Positions 3,373-30,606 of a stretch of 32,000 nucleotides of DNA are shown in pieces. The stretch lies in contig CAJUSE010000004.1 of NCBI GenBank assembly GCA_910588975.1, positions 3,790-35,789 of the forward strand, in the 5' to 3' direction. The notes under the pieces were generated by a model that did not search any database, was not told the origin of the DNA, and saw only the letters and a program-made list of their open reading frames with translations. The translations under genes and the position numbers were made by a program. Position 1 is the first letter of the stretch. Each line of letters opens with the position of its first letter. The DNA is from an uncultured Oscillospiraceae bacterium. Lineage in GTDB: Bacteria; Bacillota; Clostridia; Oscillospirales; Oscillospiraceae.

Positions 3373-3921
3373 TTAATCCAATGCCCCGGCCATGACCCGG
3401 CTTTGTAGATACTGGTTGAACCGGTCGTATTCCCCCTGGCCGATGGGCCGGGAGGAGGAGAGAATGACCAGAGTGTGTCCCTCATTCCCCCGGTGGTAGG
3501 GTGGGTGGACATGGGGGTAGGGGTTGGGGTGGAAGCCCTGCCGGAGATAAAACCCCTCCCGCCGCCGGGCCACCTCGTCCACTGGCGGGTCGATCTCCAG
3601 AATGACCACCTTGCCCAGCTCGCCCAGAGCCGTCAAAGCCCTGGCCCCATAGCCTTTCCCCCGGCAGTCAGGGTAGATGAAGAAGTGTTCCACATAGATG
3701 AATTCCCCGCTCTGCCAGCACAGCAGGGCCCCCACATCCTCCCTGCCCTCCCGGAGCAGGTAGAAGTGATAGGCGTCCTCTGCCATGATGGCGGCCTGGG
3801 AGCCGGCCTGCCGCTGCTCGTGGGGCGGAAAGCTGGCGGCGTAGTGGCTCATGGCGGTTTTGAAGCGGGGGTCGGCGGGGTCCCGCAGACGGTCAAGCTC
3901 CAATTCTCTCTCTCCTCTCAT
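3373..3921 (-). CDS. GNAT family N-acetyltransferase
   Basis: The acetyl-CoA-binding core is visible (IYPDCRGKGYGARAL). I chose the start at Met89 of the 270-aa ORF (MRGERELELDRL). The ORF stays open upstream to 4185, so the start is uncertain (alternative ATG at 4047). Confidence 0.7.
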   Translation of the reverse strand: MRGERELELDRLRDPADPRFKTAMSHYAASFPPHEQRQAGSQAAIMAEDAYHFYLLREGREDVGALLCWQSGEFIYVEHFFIYPDCRGKGYGARALTALGELGKVVILEIDPPVDEVARRREGFYLRQGFHPNPYPHVHPPYHRGNEGHTLVILSSSRPIGQGEYDRFNQYLQSRVMAGALD

Positions 3922-4093
3922 CAGTGTAAGCAGCTCCCCGGGCCTGTCCACCAGGCGCCCGGCCCCGTGGGAGAGCAAAAAGTCCCGGCCCCGAAACCCG
4001 CAGGTCACGGAAATGCAGGCCGTCCAGGTCAAACACAACGGCGTCATAGCGGGCCATGGACCTTCCTCCTCTCGGAAGTCTCTGCCTATTATG

Positions 4094-7731: not shown

Positions 7732-8826
7732 TTACCGAAACAGCCCGATGCTCTCTAAAATCCGGTTGACCTGCTCGGCCCGGCTGCTCCAGGCGGCCAC
7801 CTTGCCGTACTCCCGGCGGCGGTCCCGGGCCCAGGTGCCCACCTCGCCGGTGGCCCGGTCGCAGAGCTGGACAAACTCGGCAGGGGTGTGGGCGCCGTAG
7901 ACCACGTCGGGGAAGTGCTCCACCTGGTCGGGCCGGAGCATGGCCACGATGGGCCGGCCGGCGGAGAGGTACTCAAAGAGCCGGGCGTGGATGATGTCGC
8001 TGTTCGCCTCGCTGTCCCGGAGGAGGTAGAGGCAGGCGTCCAGACTGTGGAGGTAGTCGGGGAGATCCACCGGGTCCAGCTGGCCCAGATGGTGGACGTT
8101 GGGCAGCTCCAAGGCCTCGGGCAGCTCCCAGCAGCCGGCGTCCCGGCCTATGAGCAGGATATGACAGTCCCGCCGCTCCCGGGCCAGCCGAAGCACCGGC
8201 TCCAGGTCCAGATCGGGCCACAGGGTGCCCACAAAGCCAAAGACAGGCCCCTGAAGCCCCCGGAGAGCCCGGGGCCGGGGCAGGTCGTCCTTGGCGAACA
8301 TGGGGTAGTTGCACCCCTGGGGCAGCAGGGTCACGTTGGGATTGCGGCCGATGAGCCGCCGGGCCAGGTCGGGGGAGACGGCAAAGACCACGTCGGCGGC
8401 GGTGGTAAGCTCCTCCTCCCAGCGGGGCGGGTAGCCGCTCCACAGCCGGGCGCAGTCGTAGACCAGCCCCCGGTAGGCCAAGCCCTCCAGGAACTGGGCC
8501 CCGGCGGGGCTGGCGCACCAGAGAAGAGGCTCCCGGAAGTGGTGCCGGCTCAGCCGCTCCTGGATGAAGCGGAGGGTGCGCCGATGGCTGTACCGGGAAA
8601 AGAAGGCGGCTGAGTTCACCAGAAATTCAGGCCCTTCAGAGGGCAGGGTGTAGACGATGACGTTGGGGCGGACCTGTCGTCCCTTCTCCTTCCAAAGGCG
8701 GGAGCCGTGGGGGGCGGGGGGCTCGAAAAAGAGGACCTGGGCCCCCTCCATCCGGCTCATGAGCTGTTGGGTCCGGCTGGGGGTCTGGCTCCAGGGCTGT
8801 TCGGCCAGGCAGAGGACCTGTCTCAT
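7732..8826 (-). CDS. Glycosyltransferase (GT1/GT4-like, TuaH-like)
   Basis: The 364-aa product has a C-terminal GT-B donor-binding region (FGFVGTLWPDLDLE, ARLFEYLSAGRPIVAM). Its ATG overlaps the upstream stop codon (ATGA at 8823-8826). Confidence 0.7.
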   Translation of the reverse strand: MRQVLCLAEQPWSQTPSRTQQLMSRMEGAQVLFFEPPAPHGSRLWKEKGRQVRPNVIVYTLPSEGPEFLVNSAAFFSRYSHRRTLRFIQERLSRHHFREPLLWCASPAGAQFLEGLAYRGLVYDCARLWSGYPPRWEEELTTAADVVFAVSPDLARRLIGRNPNVTLLPQGCNYPMFAKDDLPRPRALRGLQGPVFGFVGTLWPDLDLEPVLRLARERRDCHILLIGRDAGCWELPEALELPNVHHLGQLDPVDLPDYLHSLDACLYLLRDSEANSDIIHARLFEYLSAGRPIVAMLRPDQVEHFPDVVYGAHTPAEFVQLCDRATGEVGTWARDRRREYGKVAAWSSRAEQVNRILESIGLFR

Positions 8827-19582: not shown

Positions 19583-19764
19583 GATTGGGTACACTTGAAA
19601 TTCTGGCTATTCTGGGCATCGTCCTGCTGGTGTTCGGTCCCACCCAGCTGCCCAAGCTGACCAAGATGTTCGGCAAGAGCGTCAAGAGCTTTAAGGAGGG
19701 CGTGGAGGAGGACAAGTCCACCGCCGACAAGGGGACTGAGGATGGCGACAAAAAGGAAGACTGA
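19579..19764 (+). CDS. tatA: Twin-arginine translocase subunit TatA (copy 1)
   Basis: The product starts MRLGTLEILAILGIVLLVFGPTQLPKLTKMFGKSVKSFKEG. An ATGA overlap links it to the upstream gene. Confidence 0.9.
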   Translation: MRLGTLEILAILGIVLLVFGPTQLPKLTKMFGKSVKSFKEGVEEDKSTADKGTEDGDKKED

Positions 19765-20584
19765 GGCGACTGCCCAGGAAAAGCGGATGAAGCTGACAGG
19801 CCACCTGAAGGAGCTGCGCTCCCGGCTGGTGGTCTGCCTGCTGGTGCTTTTCGTGACCATTATCGTGGGCATCGGCCTGGCTCCCAAGCTGGTGGAGCAC
19901 CTGCTGAACATGGGCAAGGTCTACGGCTATCAGTATGTCTATCTGTCCCCCCAGGAGCTGCTGATGCAATACATGTCGGCGGCACTGGTTTTTGGCATCG
20001 TGGCCACCATGCCCCTGATTCTCTATCAGGTCTGGGCCTTTGCCAAGCCGGGGCTGACCAAGCGGGAGAACCGGGTGTTTTTGTGTGCCCTCATCTTTGG
20101 GACCATCTGCTTCTGCGTGGGTGTCTACTTCGCCTATCAGGTCATGCTGCCCACCATGCTGCTGTTTCTCAGCACGCTGGAAAACAGCGCTGAGGTGGCC
20201 GCCGCCATCTCGGTACAGAATTACATCTCCTTCCTGTTGACCATCTTCATCATCTTCGGCAGCGTGTTTGAGCTGCCCGTGCTGTCGGTGGTGCTGGATG
20301 CCGTGGGTATCCTGAAGGTGAAATGGATGAAGCAGGCCCGACGGTATGTCATTGTGGTCAGTTTCATCGTATCCGCCTTCATCACCCCTCCTGATGTGGT
20401 CAGCCAGGTCATGGTGGCCATCCCTGTTATGGGACTGTATGAGCTGAGCATCATCCTGTGCTCCATCGTGGAAAAGCTGCGGCGGAAAAAGCCCGAGGAG
20501 GATGACGAGGAGAGGGAGGCTTCCGAAAAGGGAGAAGCGTCCCCCGAGAAGGAAGAAGCGTCCCCTGAAAAGAACGAGGAGTAA
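19742..20584 (+). CDS. tatC: Twin-arginine translocase subunit TatC
   Basis: The product has 6 TM segments and TatC motifs (HLKELRSRL, PLILYQVWAFAKPGL, SAFITPPDVVSQ). An alternative start at 19787 is possible. The acidic C-terminal tail contains an EASPEK repeat. Confidence 0.9.
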   Translation: MATKRKTEATAQEKRMKLTGHLKELRSRLVVCLLVLFVTIIVGIGLAPKLVEHLLNMGKVYGYQYVYLSPQELLMQYMSAALVFGIVATMPLILYQVWAFAKPGLTKRENRVFLCALIFGTICFCVGVYFAYQVMLPTMLLFLSTLENSAEVAAAISVQNYISFLLTIFIIFGSVFELPVLSVVLDAVGILKVKWMKQARRYVIVVSFIVSAFITPPDVVSQVMVAIPVMGLYELSIILCSIVEKLRRKKPEEDDEEREASEKGEASPEKEEASPEKNEE

Positions 20585-20693: not shown

Positions 20694-21221
20694 ATGAAAA
20701 ACAACCTGTTTTTGACCGGAGACCGAAGGGTGGGCAAGAGCACCTGCATCGACCGGGCACTGGAGCAGGTGCGGGGTGAGGTGAGGGGCTTTCGCACTTA
20801 CTTTGCCGACGAGACCAGAGCGCAACTGCTGCTTTCTGACCCGGCGGGGCGACAGACCCAGGTAGCGGCCCGGCGGCGGGCAGAGGGGGGCTTTCAGGTT
20901 TTTGAGGAGGCCTTTGAGGGCTGCGGCGTGGAGCTGCTCCACTCCGGTTGGGAGGCAGATCTGATGCTTATGGATGAGCTGGGCAAGCTGGAGACTGGCT
21001 GCCCCCGGTTCCGCTCTGCCGTGCTGGAGACGCTGGAGCGCCCCGTCCCCGTGCTGGGGGTGCTGCGCCAAGGGGAGGGGGAGTGGCTGGATCTGCTCCA
21101 CCGCCACTCGGCCATAGAGGTGCTCACCGTAACAGAGGACAACCGGGAATGGGTCGGGGAGCAGCTGTCCCGCTGGCTGAGGGAGCTGGGGCTTGTGCCG
21201 GAGATTTGCCCCGGAGTGTAA
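20694..21221 (+). CDS. P-loop nucleoside-triphosphatase (THEP1/NTPase_1-like)
   Basis: ATG at 20694 follows gaaggggggag. Walker A is LTGDRRVGKST and Walker B is LMLMDELG. The product is 175 aa. Confidence 0.65.
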   Translation: MKNNLFLTGDRRVGKSTCIDRALEQVRGEVRGFRTYFADETRAQLLLSDPAGRQTQVAARRRAEGGFQVFEEAFEGCGVELLHSGWEADLMLMDELGKLETGCPRFRSAVLETLERPVPVLGVLRQGEGEWLDLLHRHSAIEVLTVTEDNREWVGEQLSRWLRELGLVPEICPGV

Positions 21222-21355: not shown

Positions 21356-21365
21356 ACATATGAAA

Positions 21366-21470
21366 ATTGAATAGTCTCCGAGTAGGGTCGGCCTAAGGAT
21401 AAGCATCTATGGCCGTCCTGCCAGGGCCAGGCCGGAAACGGCATGACCTTCCGTTGTGAAAAGGGGCTTC
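21366..21470 (+). promoter_or_regulatory. Structured 5' leader, candidate Moco/W-co (RF01055-like) riboswitch aptamer, copy R1
   Basis: It shares two conserved blocks with the leader at 27405-27520. These are tgaataNNCTCCGAG (21368-21382) and CCTTCCGTTNTGAAAAGGGGC (21447-21467), with similar spacing (64 vs 68 nt). It contains an internal GNRA hairpin gccg-gaaa-cggc (21431-21442). The class assignment rests on my recollection of the consensus, not on a covariance-model search. Confidence 0.5.
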
Positions 21471-21570
21471 ACACCCGCCGGGCATGACATTTGCGTGCCT
21501 TGGCCCGTTACTTCGTGTGGGACAGCTCTTTTTCAAGGAGAAAGTGCGCCCCATGGAGACAGGGGAAGCT

Positions 21571-21607
21571 GTGGGTGTTTTGGGAAACCGGGACACCTGT
21601 TTTTTTA
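21571..21607 (+). terminator. Weak candidate intrinsic terminator within the tat2 leader
   Basis: gggtgt-(14-nt loop)-acacct followed by g and seven T residues. The stem is short and includes a G-U pair. Confidence 0.3.
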
Positions 21608-21726
21608 CCCATTTTTTCGACAAATTTCGAGGGATTTCCCCGGGAGCGGGGGTCCACAAGACTATTTTGACCTCCTGGCACATAGATTGCCATGAACGGA
21701 TCAGAGGGAGAAAGAGGAGGAGACCC

Positions 21727-22179
21727 ATGAGGATCGGAGCAGTGGAACTGTTGGTGATATTTGCTGTGGCCCTTCTGGTCATCGGACCGGACAAGCTGCC
21801 CGCCTTCGCCAGAAAGCTGGGGGAGGTGCTGGGGCAGTTCAAGGGCTACTCGGATAAGGTGGCCAAGGAGATCCGGGAGACGGTGGTAGAGCCCATGGAG
21901 GAAGTGACCCAGCCCATTCGGGAGGCCATGAAGCCCATCGAGGAAGTGGACAAGACCATCCGCAGCAGTGTGCGGGATGTGGAGAAGTCCTTCTCCGGCA
22001 TCGGCAAGCCCACGAAGAAGCCGGTGTCCCAGCCCGCCGCTCCGGCGGAGGCGGAACAGGCACCCCCTGCGGAGGAGGCCCCCGCACCCCGGCCGGCAGA
22101 TCCGGAGGAAGAAGAGATATTAAGAGAGCTTAAGGAAATTCAGGTCGAGGAAGACCGTATGAAGGAGGAAGAAAAATGA
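21727..22179 (+). CDS. TatA/E/B family protein, long TatB-like form (copy 2)
   Basis: ATG at 21727 follows aaagaggaggag. Over the first 98 aa, 81 positions are identical to copy 1 (hand count). Confidence 0.85.
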   Translation: MRIGAVELLVIFAVALLVIGPDKLPAFARKLGEVLGQFKGYSDKVAKEIRETVVEPMEEVTQPIREAMKPIEEVDKTIRSSVRDVEKSFSGIGKPTKKPVSQPAAPAEAEQAPPAEEAPAPRPADPEEEEILRELKEIQVEEDRMKEEEK

Positions 22180-22358
22180 GATTGGGAACATTGGAGCTCC
22201 TGGCCATCCTGGCCATCGTGCTGGTGGTCTTCGGCCCGTCCCAGCTGCCCAAGCTGACTAAGATGTTTGGCAAGAGCGTGAAAAATTTCAGGGAGGCAGT
22301 GGACGAGACCGACAAGGAGGACACTGCCGACGAGAAGGGCGAGGACGACAAGTCCTGA
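22176..22358 (+). CDS. tatA: Twin-arginine translocase subunit TatA (copy 2)
   Basis: ATGA overlap with the upstream gene. Over the first 44 aa, 36 positions are identical to TatA copy 1 (hand count). Confidence 0.9.
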   Translation: MRLGTLELLAILAIVLVVFGPSQLPKLTKMFGKSVKNFREAVDETDKEDTADEKGEDDKS

Positions 22359-26655: not shown

Positions 26656-27360
26656 ATGGACGAACAGACGGCCCTGCCCATTCAGACCGTGACCGGGCTC
26701 CAGACCACGGCGGAGGGGGAGACCCTCCCTGTGGAGATGGCACTGCCTGTGGAGCACAAAATCGACATTTACGTGGACGGTGAGCTTTACCGCCCGGTGG
26801 TCTGCACCCCCACCATGCTGCCGCAGCTGGTGCTGGGGCGGCTGATTACCGACGGCGTGATCTGGGGCATAGAGGAGGTGGCCCAATGGGCCATCTCCCC
26901 GGCGGGGGACAGAGCCGACGTGGCGCTATCCCACAAGCCCCGGCCGGAAAGGGAGAGGCGGGATGCCCCTGCTGTTACGGACGGTATGATCCGCACAGCC
27001 CAGGCCAAGCTGGCCGAGGGAAATCCCCTTTACAAAGCTACCCGGGGGGTCCACTGCTGTATCCTGATCCACGGGGGCGAGCTCCGCTATGTCACCGAGG
27101 ATCTGTCCCGCCACAGCGCCCTGGACAAGGCGGTGGGAAGTGCCCTTTTGGCCGGGGTGGAGCTGGGGGAGTGTGTGCTTTTCTCCAGTGGCCGGGTGCC
27201 GACGGATATGCTCCAAAAGAGCATCAACGCCGGGATCCGGGCTCTGATCGCCAAGGCCATTCCCACCTATCAAAGTGTAGAGCTGGCCCGAAAGCAGGGC
27301 ATCACCCTCATCTGTGACGCCCGGGGGGGCAAGTACGCCCAGTTTTCCCCTTTGACTTGA
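26656..27360 (+). CDS. fdhD: FdhD-family protein (formate dehydrogenase accessory sulfurtransferase-like)
   Basis: RBS: aaggaga. FdhD-like blocks are visible (IDIYVDGELYRPVVCTPTMLPQLVLGRLITDGVI, EDLSRHSALDKAVG, SSGRVPTDMLQKSINAGIRALIAKAIPT). The product is short (234 aa) and contains no CxxC motif. Confidence 0.7.
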   Translation: MDEQTALPIQTVTGLQTTAEGETLPVEMALPVEHKIDIYVDGELYRPVVCTPTMLPQLVLGRLITDGVIWGIEEVAQWAISPAGDRADVALSHKPRPERERRDAPAVTDGMIRTAQAKLAEGNPLYKATRGVHCCILIHGGELRYVTEDLSRHSALDKAVGSALLAGVELGECVLFSSGRVPTDMLQKSINAGIRALIAKAIPTYQSVELARKQGITLICDARGGKYAQFSPLT

Positions 27361-27386
27361 CAAAGAGACTCCCGCTGTGGTATCCT
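27357..27386 (+). promoter_or_regulatory. Candidate promoter for the ABC importer operon
   Basis: TTGACA (27357-27362, overlapping the fdhD stop), an 18-nt spacer, then TATCCT (27381-27386), with TGg just upstream as an extended -10. Confidence 0.5.
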
Positions 27387-27404
27387 CAGTGGGAACACAA
27401 GAAC

Positions 27405-27520
27405 TGAATATGCTCCGAGCCGGCTGTACCTACGGGAGGGAACTCCTACGGTCCCCCGGCCACTGGGTCACATGGAAAACCATATGGCCTTCCGTTTTGA
27501 AAAGGGGCAGCTTGCATATC
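27405..27520 (+). promoter_or_regulatory. Structured 5' leader, candidate Moco/W-co riboswitch aptamer, copy R2
   Basis: It has the same blocks as R1: tgaatatgCTCCGAG (27405-27419) and CCTTCCGTTTTGAAAAGGGGC (27488-27508). A closing helix atatgc (27408-27413) pairs with gcatat (27514-27519). Internal hairpins are ggag-ggaa-ctcc (27435-27446) and ggcca...atgg-aaaa-ccat...tggcc (27458-27489). Confidence 0.5.
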
Positions 27521-27563
27521 GGGGACGCCCCTTTGGAGCGCCCCGGAATGGGTTGTACGCTCT

Positions 27564-27597
27564 GGACTCCTTTTCTTCGGAAAAGGAGTCCTTTTTT
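27564..27597 (+). terminator. Strong intrinsic terminator forming the expression platform of leader R2
   Basis: ggactcctttt-cttcgg-aaaaggagtcc followed by tttttt, about 50 nt upstream of the permease ATG. Confidence 0.8.
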
Positions 27598-27648
27598 GCT
27601 TATTTTGAGCCCTTCTGTCAGGCAGGGGGCGGGGAAAGGAGAGGGAAC

Positions 27649-28662
27649 ATGGAGGAAAAGCGAGCAAACCGCACCCTGTTGGCTCTGGGGCTTGCCCTGG
27701 CGGCTCTGGTGGCCCTGTCCTTCACCCTGGGCCGGTATGGTTTGGGGCTGGGAGAGCTGTGGCGTGTGCTCACCGGCACCCCCCTGGGCCTGCCGGCCAG
27801 CCAGATGACCCCCCAGCAAACAGTTGTGTGGAACATCCGCCTGCCCCGCATCCTGCTGTGCTGCCTGGTGGGGGCTTGCCTTGCCTCGGCAGGGGCCTGC
27901 TATCAGGGGGTGTTCCAGAATGCCATGGCCTCTCCCGACCTGCTGGGCTGCTCCCAGGGGGCTGCCTTTGGGGCGGCTCTGGCCATCCTGCTGGGGGCCG
28001 GCACCGCCGGGATCACCGCCTCGGCCTTCCTGTTCAGCCTGGTGACAGTGGCCCTTGTCTACCTCATTGGCCAGTATGCCCCTGGGCAGAAGGTGCTCAA
28101 TTTGGTGCTGGGGGGCGTGATGATCGGCTCCCTCTTCTCGGCGGGGACCTCCTTTATCAAGCTGGTGGCCGACCCGGGAGACCAGCTGCCCGCCATCACT
28201 TACTGGCTCATGGGCTCTCTGGCCGGGGCCAGGATGGAGACCGTACTGCTGGCTCTGGTGCCCATGCTGTTGGGCCTTGTGCCCCTGTTCCTGCTGCGCT
28301 GGAAGATCAACCTGCTGGTGATGGGGGAGGAGGAGGCCCGGGCCATGGGGGTGCATACCGACCGGCTGCGGCTGGTGGTGGTGCTGTGCGCCACCCTCAT
28401 TACGGCATCGGCGGTGTCAGTGAGCGGCCTCATTGGCTGGGTGGGGCTGGTGGTGCCCCACCTGTCCCGGATGCTGGTGGGCAGCAATTACAAGCACCTG
28501 CTGCCCTGCTCGGCCCTCTTTGGGGCGGGGTTCCTGCTCCTCACCGACAACGTCAGCCGAAATCTCTTTACCGCCGAGCTGCCCATCGGCATCCTGACGG
28601 CCTGGATCGGCGCTCCCTTTTTCATCTATCTCATGCTGCATCAGGGGAGGGGAGAGACATGA
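27649..28662 (+). CDS. FecCD/BtuC-family ABC transporter permease
   Basis: ATG at 27649 follows aaaggagaggg. The product has typical FecCD blocks (IRLPRILLCCLVGACLASAGACYQGVFQN, GIPMGILTA-like LPIGILTAWIGAPFFIYL). Confidence 0.85.
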   Translation: MEEKRANRTLLALGLALAALVALSFTLGRYGLGLGELWRVLTGTPLGLPASQMTPQQTVVWNIRLPRILLCCLVGACLASAGACYQGVFQNAMASPDLLGCSQGAAFGAALAILLGAGTAGITASAFLFSLVTVALVYLIGQYAPGQKVLNLVLGGVMIGSLFSAGTSFIKLVADPGDQLPAITYWLMGSLAGARMETVLLALVPMLLGLVPLFLLRWKINLLVMGEEEARAMGVHTDRLRLVVVLCATLITASAVSVSGLIGWVGLVVPHLSRMLVGSNYKHLLPCSALFGAGFLLLTDNVSRNLFTAELPIGILTAWIGAPFFIYLMLHQGRGET

Positions 28663-29456
28663 TAGAGGTCAAAGACCTGTGCTTTTCCTACCGCAGCCGG
28701 GAGGTACTCAAGGGGGTCTCCTTCCAGGCAAGGGAGGGTACGGTCAGCTTCGTGCTGGGGGCCAACGGAGCGGGCAAGACCACCCTGTTCCGCTGCCTGC
28801 TGGGCCTCTACAGGCCCAGCGCCGGGGCCGTGCTGCTGGATGGAGAGGACCTGACCAGGCTGCCGCCCCCCCAGCTGGCCAAACGGCTGGCCTATATTCC
28901 CCAGAGCCATGCCCCCGTTTTTGATTTCACCGTGCTGGACATGGTGCTCATGGGCACCAACCACGACCTTGGGACCTTTCGGTCCCCGGGGGCGGAGGAG
29001 CGCCGCCGGGCCATGTCCGCTCTGGAGCGGGTAGGGGCCCAGGAGCTGACCCACCGGGTGTTCCGCCGGCTCAGCGGGGGGGAGCAGCAGCTGGTCCTCA
29101 TTGCCCGGGCCCTGGCCCAGGGCTCCCGGGTGCTGGTTATGGACGAACCCACTGCCAATCTGGATTACGGCAATCAGCTTCTGGTGCTGGAGTGCGTCTG
29201 CCGGCTGGCAGAGGAGGGCTACACCGTCCTTATCTCCTCCCACGACCCCCAGCACGCCCTGTGGTATGCCCACCGGGTGCTGGCGCTGGACGGGGGCGTG
29301 GTGGTGGCCGACGGTCCCGCCGGGGAGGTGCTGGACGGCCCGCTGCTCCAACAGCTCTATGGCGTGGAGGCAGAGTTTGCGCAGGCGAGCTGCGGCCGGG
29401 TCATTGTCCCCAGGCAAATCAAAACGCACAAGGTGTATAAGGAGGAAATGGAATGA
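28659..29456 (+). CDS. ABC transporter ATP-binding protein (FepC/BtuD-like)
   Basis: ATGA overlap with the permease gene. Walker A is GANGAGKTT, the ABC signature is LSGGEQQ and Walker B is VLVMDEP. Confidence 0.9.
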   Translation: MIEVKDLCFSYRSREVLKGVSFQAREGTVSFVLGANGAGKTTLFRCLLGLYRPSAGAVLLDGEDLTRLPPPQLAKRLAYIPQSHAPVFDFTVLDMVLMGTNHDLGTFRSPGAEERRRAMSALERVGAQELTHRVFRRLSGGEQQLVLIARALAQGSRVLVMDEPTANLDYGNQLLVLECVCRLAEEGYTVLISSHDPQHALWYAHRVLALDGGVVVADGPAGEVLDGPLLQQLYGVEAEFAQASCGRVIVPRQIKTHKVYKEEME

Positions 29457-30553
29457 AAAGAACGGTCTCTATGCTTCTGGCCCTGACCTTGGGCCTCACC
29501 CTGGTGGGCTGCAGCGGCCAGAGGGGGGAGAAAAACCCGGATCCCGAGGTCAGCACCCCTGTTGAGGAGAGCCAGACCACCGAGCCCCGGAGCTTTACCG
29601 ACTCCCTGGGCCGGACGGTGGAGCTGCCCGCCCAGATCGACCACATCGCCGTCAGCGCCGCCATGGCCCAGCGGGTGGTGGCCCCCCTGGCCGCTGATAA
29701 GATGATCGGGCGCTCCGGGGAGTTCACCGAGGCGGAAAGGGAGTATTACACCGACGCCTATGCCGAGCTACCCGTGGTGGGCGAGTTCTACGGCAAGGAG
29801 ACCGGGGATCTGGAGGTGCTGCTCTCCTCCGGCGCCCAGGTGGTCATCGACGTAGGTACGCCTAAGGACGGTCTGGCCGAGGACCTGGACGCCCTCACCC
29901 GGCAGACGGGCATCCCCTTCGTCCACATTTCCTTCTACGCCGATGCCATGGATGAGGTATATATCAAGCTGGGCGAGCTGCTGAACATGCCCGATGAAGC
30001 CGAGAAGCTGGCGGCCTACTGCCGGGAGACCTATGATATGGTCCAGGCCATCGCCGACAAGGCCGAGAAGGCCAACATCCTCTATGTGGTGGGGGATAAG
30101 GGGCTCAATGTCATCGCCAGGGGCAGCTACCACGCCGGGGTCATCGACATGCTGACCAACAACCTGGCCGTGGTGGATAACCCCGTCTCCAAGGGCTTTG
30201 GCAACGAGGTGGACATGGAGCAGATCCTGCTCTGGGACCCGGATATCATCTTCTTCTCTCCTGAGAGCATCTATGATACCGTGGCCGATGATCCCCTCTA
30301 TCAGCAGGTCACCGCCATCAGGAACGGGGCCTACTATAAGGTCCCCCTTGGCCCGGACAACTGGATGGGCTTTCCCCCTTCGGTCCAGCAGCTGCTGGGT
30401 ATGCAGTGGATGGCCAAGGTCCTCTATCCCGACCTGGCCGACTACGACCTCTACGAGCGGGTAAATGAGTTCTACACCCTGTTCTACCATAAGCCCCTGT
30501 CCCAGGAGGAATTCGATAAGCTGGTCGCCGGCTCTCTGAGCCCGAAAGCCTGA
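29453..30553 (+). CDS. ABC transporter substrate-binding lipoprotein (Peripla_BP_2 / cluster A, BtuF/FhuD-like)
   Basis: ATGA overlap with the ATPase gene. The Sec/SPII signal with lipobox reads MKRTVSMLLALTLGLTLVGC. The 366-aa product sits downstream of the FecCD permease and ATPase genes. Confidence 0.8.
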   Translation: MKRTVSMLLALTLGLTLVGCSGQRGEKNPDPEVSTPVEESQTTEPRSFTDSLGRTVELPAQIDHIAVSAAMAQRVVAPLAADKMIGRSGEFTEAEREYYTDAYAELPVVGEFYGKETGDLEVLLSSGAQVVIDVGTPKDGLAEDLDALTRQTGIPFVHISFYADAMDEVYIKLGELLNMPDEAEKLAAYCRETYDMVQAIADKAEKANILYVVGDKGLNVIARGSYHAGVIDMLTNNLAVVDNPVSKGFGNEVDMEQILLWDPDIIFFSPESIYDTVADDPLYQQVTAIRNGAYYKVPLGPDNWMGFPPSVQQLLGMQWMAKVLYPDLADYDLYERVNEFYTLFYHKPLSQEEFDKLVAGSLSPKA

Positions 30554-30563
30554 TACAAACAAG

Positions 30564-30606
30564 AAAAAAGGGCCGCCGTTTTACATGAAAACGGCGGCCC
30601 TTTGTA
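30564..30606. terminator. Bidirectional rho-independent terminator
   Basis: aaaaa-agggccgccgtttt-acatg-aaaacggcggccct-ttgtatt, between convergent genes. Confidence 0.8.

Follow-up and report, generated by a model that had tools for sequence, protein, structure and literature searches.

A P3-less Moco-family riboswitch precedes an iron-annotated ABC importer operon in an uncultured bacterium related to Oscillospirales

Introduction

The leader RNA R2 belongs to the Moco riboswitch family (RF01055) and lacks the P3 helix; it stands in front of an operon encoding an ABC importer. Both the riboswitch class and the type of regulon are known, and R2 adds one more member: the window, by which we mean the whole 32,000-nucleotide stretch of contig CAJUSE010000004.1 that was analysed, also holds a sister element, R1, in front of an AOR operon. 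Coordinates below are those of the window and, unless otherwise stated, features lie on its plus strand. We consider it likely that the arrangement as a whole is explained by a P3-less switch exerting OFF control over an importer of the MolBC-A kind for tungsten or molybdenum.

As a riboswitch R2 is routine, and its value lies in the functional label that it puts on a transporter family. Importers of this family are widespread in gut Clostridia and are annotated as iron-complex transporters; R2 places the family in tungsten/molybdenum cofactor metabolism, which suggests that the "iron-type" transporter under R2 really supplies tungsten or molybdenum. This bears on a question raised in 2026, namely whether Tat-exported Class V (YdhV-type) oxidoreductases use tungsten or molybdenum (PMC13328260). 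In that study, the metal was inferred from the presence or absence of TupABC. If our reading is true, a MolBC-like importer under a P3-less switch, at the place that tupABC holds in Cetobacterium, would weaken the TupABC-based inference, and the R2 importer together with the Class V operon makes a concrete testable system for metal use.

Results

R2 belongs to the Moco RNA family and lacks P3

When the whole window was scanned with Rfam covariance models, exactly two matches exceeded their gathering score, R1 and R2, both of them to RF01055 (gathering score 36 bits). R2 (27401..27523) matches with 61.0 bits (E=1.7e-12) over model positions 1-135 and scores 70.6 bits with our own detection covariance model; R1 (21364..21482) matches with 54.4 bits, likewise with the full model aligned. 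The initial annotation, made from the sequence alone, had described R2 as a second copy of the R1 aptamer and had proposed that RF01055 be tried for a tungsten- or molybdenum-related signal, and on both points the two leaders, at 61 and 54 bits, bear it out. It had also allowed for the opposite outcome, a cobalamin assignment for R2 with no match for R1. Cobalamin is rejected as the identity of R2, since RF00174 gives no match in 27340-27660 even when E<=10 is allowed, and R1 does match RF01055. A permissive Rfam scan of the same interval returned no other credible family, RF01055 being the sole significant one.

The two conserved blocks on which the similarity had been noticed were found again, TGAATATGCTCCGAG at 27405-27419 and CCTTCCGTTTTGAAAAGGGGC at 27488-27508; the second agrees with R1 (21447-21467) at 20 of 21 positions, and the blocks are 68 nt apart in R2 and 64 nt apart in R1. 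In the Rfam alignment of R2, which contains few non-canonical pairs, the 5' strand of P1, UGCUCC (27411..27416), pairs with 27504-27509. P2 (27419..27460) is a hairpin with an internal loop CCUACG/UACGG at the position of the tetraloop receptor and a terminal GGAA loop at 27439-27442, the GGAA hairpin that had already been pointed out; it is supported by the Rfam alignment, by the minimum free energy (MFE) fold and by compensatory differences from R1. P4 (27465..27490) consists of GGGUCACAUGG, an AAAA loop and CCAUAUGGCCU in the Rfam alignment, which then places the conserved 3' core UCCGUUUUGAAAA and the P1 3' strand GGGGCA (27504-27509) within 27491..27509; P5 comprises two pairs in 27491-27500. 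The unconstrained MFE fold of 27395-27512 is exactly the consensus P1, P2, P4 and P5, and the fold of the 206-nt leader is more stable than those of shuffled sequences (z = -3.2). All five model pairs of P3 are deleted in R2 and in R1, so computed.

A closing helix that had been proposed earlier, ATATGC (27408-27413) with GCATAT (27514-27519), is a perfect complement as claimed, but it is not the P1 of the family. As P1 it is rejected, since it excludes the consensus P1, competes with it for UGC and is 3.7 kcal/mol less stable (-35.1 against -38.9 kcal/mol).

Covariation, which the initial annotation had wanted examined, is found both between the two leaders and across the family. With R1 and R2 aligned by model position, 29 pairs are canonical in both, eight of which differ on both sides and one on one side; the two are therefore diverged copies under structural constraint and not a recent duplication. 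In an alignment of 24 Moco RNAs, both-side changes occur at 7 of the 10 pairs of P4, and the blocks CCUUCCG and GAAAAGG hardly vary, if at all. RNAalifold on the MAFFT alignment of these 24 sequences recovers P4 alone because P2 varies in length and aligns poorly; our own covariance model built from them therefore holds P4 pairs only and was used for detection, not as structural evidence.

R2 is without the usual tertiary-contact sequences: its P4 loop is AAAA and not GAAA, and its receptor CCUACG/UACGG and not CCUAAG/UAUGG, whereas R1 keeps the canonical GAAA tetraloop and the 11-nt receptor CCUAAG/UAUGG. A few family members without the GNRA tetraloop/receptor contact were described when the motif was defined (PMC2408646), and the GNRA/11-nt receptor contact is therefore typical, not obligatory. 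Between the AAAA loop (27476-27479) and the loop at the receptor position (27429-27434 / 27447-27451) of R2, the contact may be co-varying or lost. A literature search for a structure of the Moco/Tuco riboswitch yielded nothing useful.

The expression platform has the layout of an OFF switch

A putative sigma-70-like promoter of the R2 unit lies at 27357..27386 (TTGACA, an 18-nt spacer, TATCCT, and TG before the -10 element; 10 of 12 consensus matches), which would place the transcript start at about 27393-27395. A TTGACA-type promoter directly upstream of the aptamer is also present in the leaders of four loci from the surveys described below (L011, L029, L056 and L119). Between the fdhD stop codon (27360) and the hairpin at 27564-27597 no terminator was found; R2 is therefore probably also reached by read-through from the AOR operon, and such read-through from the R1 operon would be gated at R2 as well.

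The intrinsic terminator (27564..27597) has a 12-bp stem, 27564-27575/27580-27591, with arms GGACUCCUUUUC/GAAAAGGAGUCC, a UUCG loop and U6 at 27592-27597. The initial annotation had placed a terminator with a T6 tract here, correctly, and had counted an 11-bp stem, one pair short. In MFE folds of transcripts ending at 27576 or 27582, GAAAAGGGG (27499..27507) pairs with CUCCUUUUC (27567-27575) in a predicted antiterminator of 9 bp, one of them G-U. Its 5' strand overlaps four of the six bases of the P1 3' strand, and its 3' strand doubles as 9 of the 12 bases of the terminator 5' arm. Because the antiterminator takes both the four P1 bases and the terminator arm, a ligand-stabilised P1 should free that arm. 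Terminator and alternative pairing, both computed, thus give the R2 platform the predicted layout of a transcriptional OFF switch. In the MFE fold of the full-length leader the terminator is formed with or without P1, and switching must therefore be kinetic.

The direction of the switch, which we infer from this layout, would be as follows. R2 would be transcribed from its own promoter. With the cofactor scarce, GAAAAGGGG would pair with CUCCUUUUC and polymerase would read into the genes for the permease, the ATPase and the binding protein. Bound cofactor would lock P1 (27411-27416 with 27504-27509) and so release the terminator arm, the freed arm would form the 12-bp hairpin followed by U6, and transcription would stop at about 27597. 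The outcome would be negative feedback of the cofactor on the importer.

The design is shared in part by other importer-linked Moco leaders. The MFE fold of the L056 leader pairs the invariant AAAAGGA with a UCCUUUU in the terminator 5' arm; in L011 complementarity of the UCCUUUU/AAAAGGA type is visible by eye, and the leader's own MFE fold forms the terminator. The complementarity is weaker in L119, and none is evident in the L029 leader. Between the R2 aptamer and its terminator there is also a GC-rich hairpin, 27520-27547 (CGGGGACGCCCC...GGAGCGCCCCG), and GCCCCUUU (27529-27536) can pair with AAAGGGGC (27500-27507) of the aptamer, possibly as an additional anti-P1 element.

The operon under R2 encodes a type II importer

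The leader with its terminator had been assigned to the control of an ABC importer, and the genes downstream agree with this. A Shine-Dalgarno sequence read from the DNA, AAGGAG (27636..27641), lies 7 nt before the ATG of a FecCD-family, MolB-like type II importer permease (27649..28662; PF01032, 3e-89). In domain searches it is followed by an ABC ATPase (28659..29456), whose start codon overlaps the permease stop codon, and by a lipoprotein substrate-binding protein of the Peripla_BP_2 type (29453..30553), whose start codon overlaps the ATPase stop. Both gene junctions are thus 4-nt overlaps, and the importer genes are translationally coupled. A hairpin between convergent genes (30567..30603, without strand assignment) is probably the end of the ABC operon.

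In a search of the PDB, the best solved relative of the permease is HI1471 (MolB, 2nq2_A) with 250.8 bits, and the other solved permeases score 161.9 (HmuU), 157 (FhuB) and 140 bits (BtuC). For the ATPase, the PDB search does not separate subfamilies. The Pfam and NCBIfam families of the importer are those of iron-siderophore, haem and B12 importers. The best sequence matches of the binding protein are uncharacterised structural-genomics entries (4pag and 4ovk); MolA is the third-best sequence match of the binding-protein family profile, over residues 247-348 only, the C-terminal part. An AlphaFold model of the binding protein (pLDDT 79) was used for a fold search, in which MolA ranks eighth with a TM score of 0.59, level with the iron-chelate binder YiuA at 0.62, and the neighbours include putative Fe(III) binders. 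The model and fold search were tried as a discriminator of cargo and set aside, as they do not separate an oxyanion binder from an iron-chelate binder.

R1 precedes a Class V oxidoreductase operon

The operon under R1 comprises tatA/B, a Tat-signal Fe-S protein of the YdhY type, a YdhV-type AOR, two YdhW paralogues and FdhD. The AOR reaches 869.5 bits with NF007354 (cutoff 868) and carries AFOR_N and AFOR_C domains; the operon also has an NF007382 match of 254 bits, and the motif RRQFLK of a Tat signal is found in the small Fe-S subunit. On these sequence matches the operon fits the Class V tungsten-oxidoreductase (WOR) class of the YdhV/YdhY type, defined in PMC13328260, where the metal used, molybdenum or tungsten, is stated to be unresolved. 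RF01055 matches before both operons support the proposal, made earlier, of a small regulon common to the AOR operon and the importer.

Several genes around R1 deserve mention in their own right. TatA and tatC genes lie upstream of R1 (19742-20584) and two tatA/B-like genes come first in the R1 operon (21727-22358), and Tat genes are also seen at L081:147-1152; the export machinery would thus be co-regulated with its cofactor-containing cargo through the tat genes of the operon. The first Tat ORF after R1 (21484-22179; public call L081:2123-2749) starts inside the R1 leader, before the terminator at 21571-21600. As the TatA/B domain begins at MRIGAVE (21727), the annotated start of this gene is probably too early. 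An NTPase_1 gene stands just upstream of R1 (20694-21221), detached from the importer cluster.

Relatives of the importer cluster with an XdhC-type gene

Homologues of the binding protein number in the thousands in gut Clostridia. With one genome per species scanned, at least 335 stretches encode a relative of the importer, and 80 loci with 51-62% identity were kept. Their common cluster order is FecCD permease, ABC ATPase, SAM methyltransferase, Peripla_BP_2, XdhC-family protein and NTPase_1. Such clusters, apparently uncharacterised, are seen in Clostridia for example at L066:4494-9583, L079:4963-9685 and L057:6767-8964. Of the 49 loci that span 12 kb or more, 34 (69%) have the XdhC gene next to the importer, 36 the NTPase and 36 the methyltransferase. 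Two of the XdhC proteins, from L066 and L057, were scanned against NCBIfam; both match "XdhC family aldehyde oxidoreductase maturation factor" best, at a score below its cutoff.

By our own model, 5 of the 80 loci have a Moco RNA immediately ahead of the importer genes, and about 93% are without a riboswitch. The five comprise two Flavonifractor species, one Lachnospiraceae and a pair of uncultured Clostridia bins whose leaders are identical. Four of the leaders were aligned with Rfam, and all four have P3; the remaining one, in L057, shares its sequence with the L056 leader.

A pattern scan of metagenomes yielded at least 28 true Moco RNA loci by model among the 120 matches listed, the others being mostly chance. 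One of them, L119, has a P3-less Moco RNA, a terminator and a divergent type II importer, whose permease is closest to MolB (247 versus 153 bits) and whose binding protein aligns with MolA over the full length.

The same surveys turned up other arrangements. Moco RNAs stand directly before TonB-dependent receptors at L090:28-146, L101:6119-6240, L107:1390-1509, L126:8559-8679, L163:727-845, L183:7941-8061 and L200:2559-2676; plug and beta-barrel domains were confirmed for L090, and the six other receptors were judged by their similar N-terminal sequences. This pairing hints at riboswitch-controlled uptake of molybdenum or tungsten across the outer membrane. The region downstream of the receptor genes was examined and gave nothing productive. 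Tandem Moco RNAs within a single leader precede a gene like that of a formate dehydrogenase alpha subunit (L132:3676-3795 and 3842-3959) and a gene that is TupA-like by eye (L186:7836-7953 and 8003-8131). At L124:28-146 a Moco RNA precedes a formate/nitrite transporter (FNT) gene, the same unexplained pairing as that reported for focA in E. limosum.

Discussion

The reading set out above depends on R2 being a working switch and on what it senses. That R2 is instead a decaying or non-regulatory copy, with the hairpin at 27564-27597 merely the terminator of the upstream fdhD operon, is very improbable: the absence of any other terminator between fdhD (which ends at 27360) and the hairpin would fit such a history, as would the atypical AAAA loop and receptor, but R2 outscores R1 with the Rfam model while aligned over its full length, and the eight compensatory differences from R1 are those expected under selection on the fold. 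A promoter-like site directly upstream, an antiterminator that overlaps P1 precisely, and a leader that scores identically (70.6 bits, with the same length and GC) in L081 and L082, contigs of other samples, also speak against decay. The ligand calls for more caution. The P3-less variant has been proposed to bind Tuco, the tungsten form of the pterin cofactor, and this assignment is a correlation; simple binding assays are precluded by the instability of the cofactor (PMC2408646). It is a real if lesser possibility that R2 senses Moco, or does not distinguish molybdenum from tungsten, in which case the lack of P3 would carry no information on the metal and the regulon would be one of molybdenum. 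The P3 rule is a correlation to which there are exceptions; the oxidoreductase under control is a YdhV-type enzyme, and E. coli YdhV prefers molybdenum (PMC13328260); and in four other species the RNA in front of the orthologous importer does contain P3. Tungsten is favoured in turn by the tracking of tungsten genes by P3-less RNAs in 17 of 19 organisms (PMC2408646), by E. limosum, in which all five elements are P3-less and two respond to tungsten limitation (PMC11725836), and by the one Class V oxidoreductase tested from an organism with a tungstate transporter, which prefers tungsten (PMC13328260).

For the cargo, the balance tips somewhat toward tungstate or molybdate, which would serve the cofactor of the neighbouring Tat-exported YdhV-type oxidoreductase. 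Feedback of the proposed kind fits the supply of a cofactor precursor; in E. limosum, the fetABC1 operon reacts to a shortage of tungsten; in two independent cases MolB is the nearest solved relative of the permease; an XdhC-type maturation gene is part of the cluster typical of the importer family; and the importer adjoins the operon of a Class V oxidoreductase, much as tupABC in Cetobacterium somerae lies directly beside the Class V WOR operon (PMC13328260). Under the same riboswitch, the importer might carry iron as a ferric chelate or haem, with iron supply for Fe-S-rich tungsten enzymes tied to cofactor status, which is the published view of the "Fet" transporters of E. limosum, an organism with 12-fold higher cellular iron on lactate (PMC11725836). 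The Pfam and NCBIfam assignments point this way, and so do the putative Fe(III) binders and YiuA among the structural neighbours of the binding protein. We nevertheless regard iron as unlikely: repression of uptake at high cofactor levels, as by an OFF switch, suits precursor supply and not a growing demand for iron, fetABC1 rises under tungsten limitation like a tungsten-starvation gene, MolB is the closest solved permease by about 90 bits in the two independent cases, and the genes that cluster with the family are for XdhC-type cofactor maturation, not for iron. An iron chelate keeps this much weight because the binding protein does not discriminate. Quite improbable, and well below iron, is salvage of a bulky tungsten or molybdenum species, be it a metal chelate (a "tungstophore" or "molybdophore"), the pterin cofactor or a precursor, which could be handed to the XdhC-type maturation factor and the NTPase that accompany the importer family. 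It is entertained because B12 riboswitches gating BtuFCD offer a parallel, because type II importers typically take cargo of that size, because the binding protein equally resembles chelate binders, and because Moco RNAs often precede TonB-dependent receptors in environmental contigs.

A tungstate or molybdate importer under a P3-less OFF switch can be set beside several known systems. Regulski et al. (2008) defined the Moco RNA motif, showed its E. coli moaA representative to be an OFF switch, and proposed that P3-less members, which track tungsten-cofactor genes, sense Tuco (PMC2408646). R2 shares with the motif P1, P2, P4 and P5, the cores CUCCGAG and CCUUCCG...GAAAAGG, and downstream genes related to molybdenum or tungsten; with the P3-less subclass it shares the missing P3, and its terminator competes with P1. 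It departs from the family in the AAAA loop and CCUACG/UACGG that stand for GAAA and CCUAAG/UAUGG, and in controlling a type II (FecCD) importer, not ModABC, TupABC or WtpABC.

The closest precedent is E. limosum, where WOR1, tupABC, two "Fe ABC-type" transporters (fetABC1 and fetABC2) and focA are each preceded by a P3-less RF01055 element, five in all, and where the genes behind the terminator-bearing elements, fetABC1 and focA, go up under tungsten limitation (PMC11725836, 2024). As with R1 and R2, P3-less RF01055 elements there precede an AOR-family operon and iron-annotated ABC transporters, and fetABC1, like the R2 operon, combines riboswitch and terminator and is de-repressed when tungsten is limiting. 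The enzyme of E. limosum is the electron-bifurcating WOR1, whereas that of the window is Tat-exported and of the YdhV/YdhY type (Class V); moreover, the host is not E. limosum but an uncultured relative of Oscillospirales with roughly 62% GC, and the likeness to Fet is one of arrangement and annotation. What is seen in the window is thus an arrangement already published, here in another lineage and with an oxidoreductase of another class.

MolBC-A (HI1470/71/72) is the type II molybdate/tungstate importer of Haemophilus influenzae (PMC4031551, PMC4245157). It resembles the R2 importer in its FecCD permease, ATPase and class III binding protein and in its molybdenum/tungsten context; it differs in that the binding protein here is weakly MolA-like (a C-terminal match and a TM score of 0.59) and the cargo here is predicted. 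No riboswitch link to MolBC-A was found in the literature searched. In the cobalamin system, a riboswitch gates BtuFCD: the type II importer related to the cofactor is repressed by a terminator-bearing leader that senses this cofactor. R2 would follow the same logic with another aptamer class, and its likely cargo is a metal precursor, not the finished cofactor.
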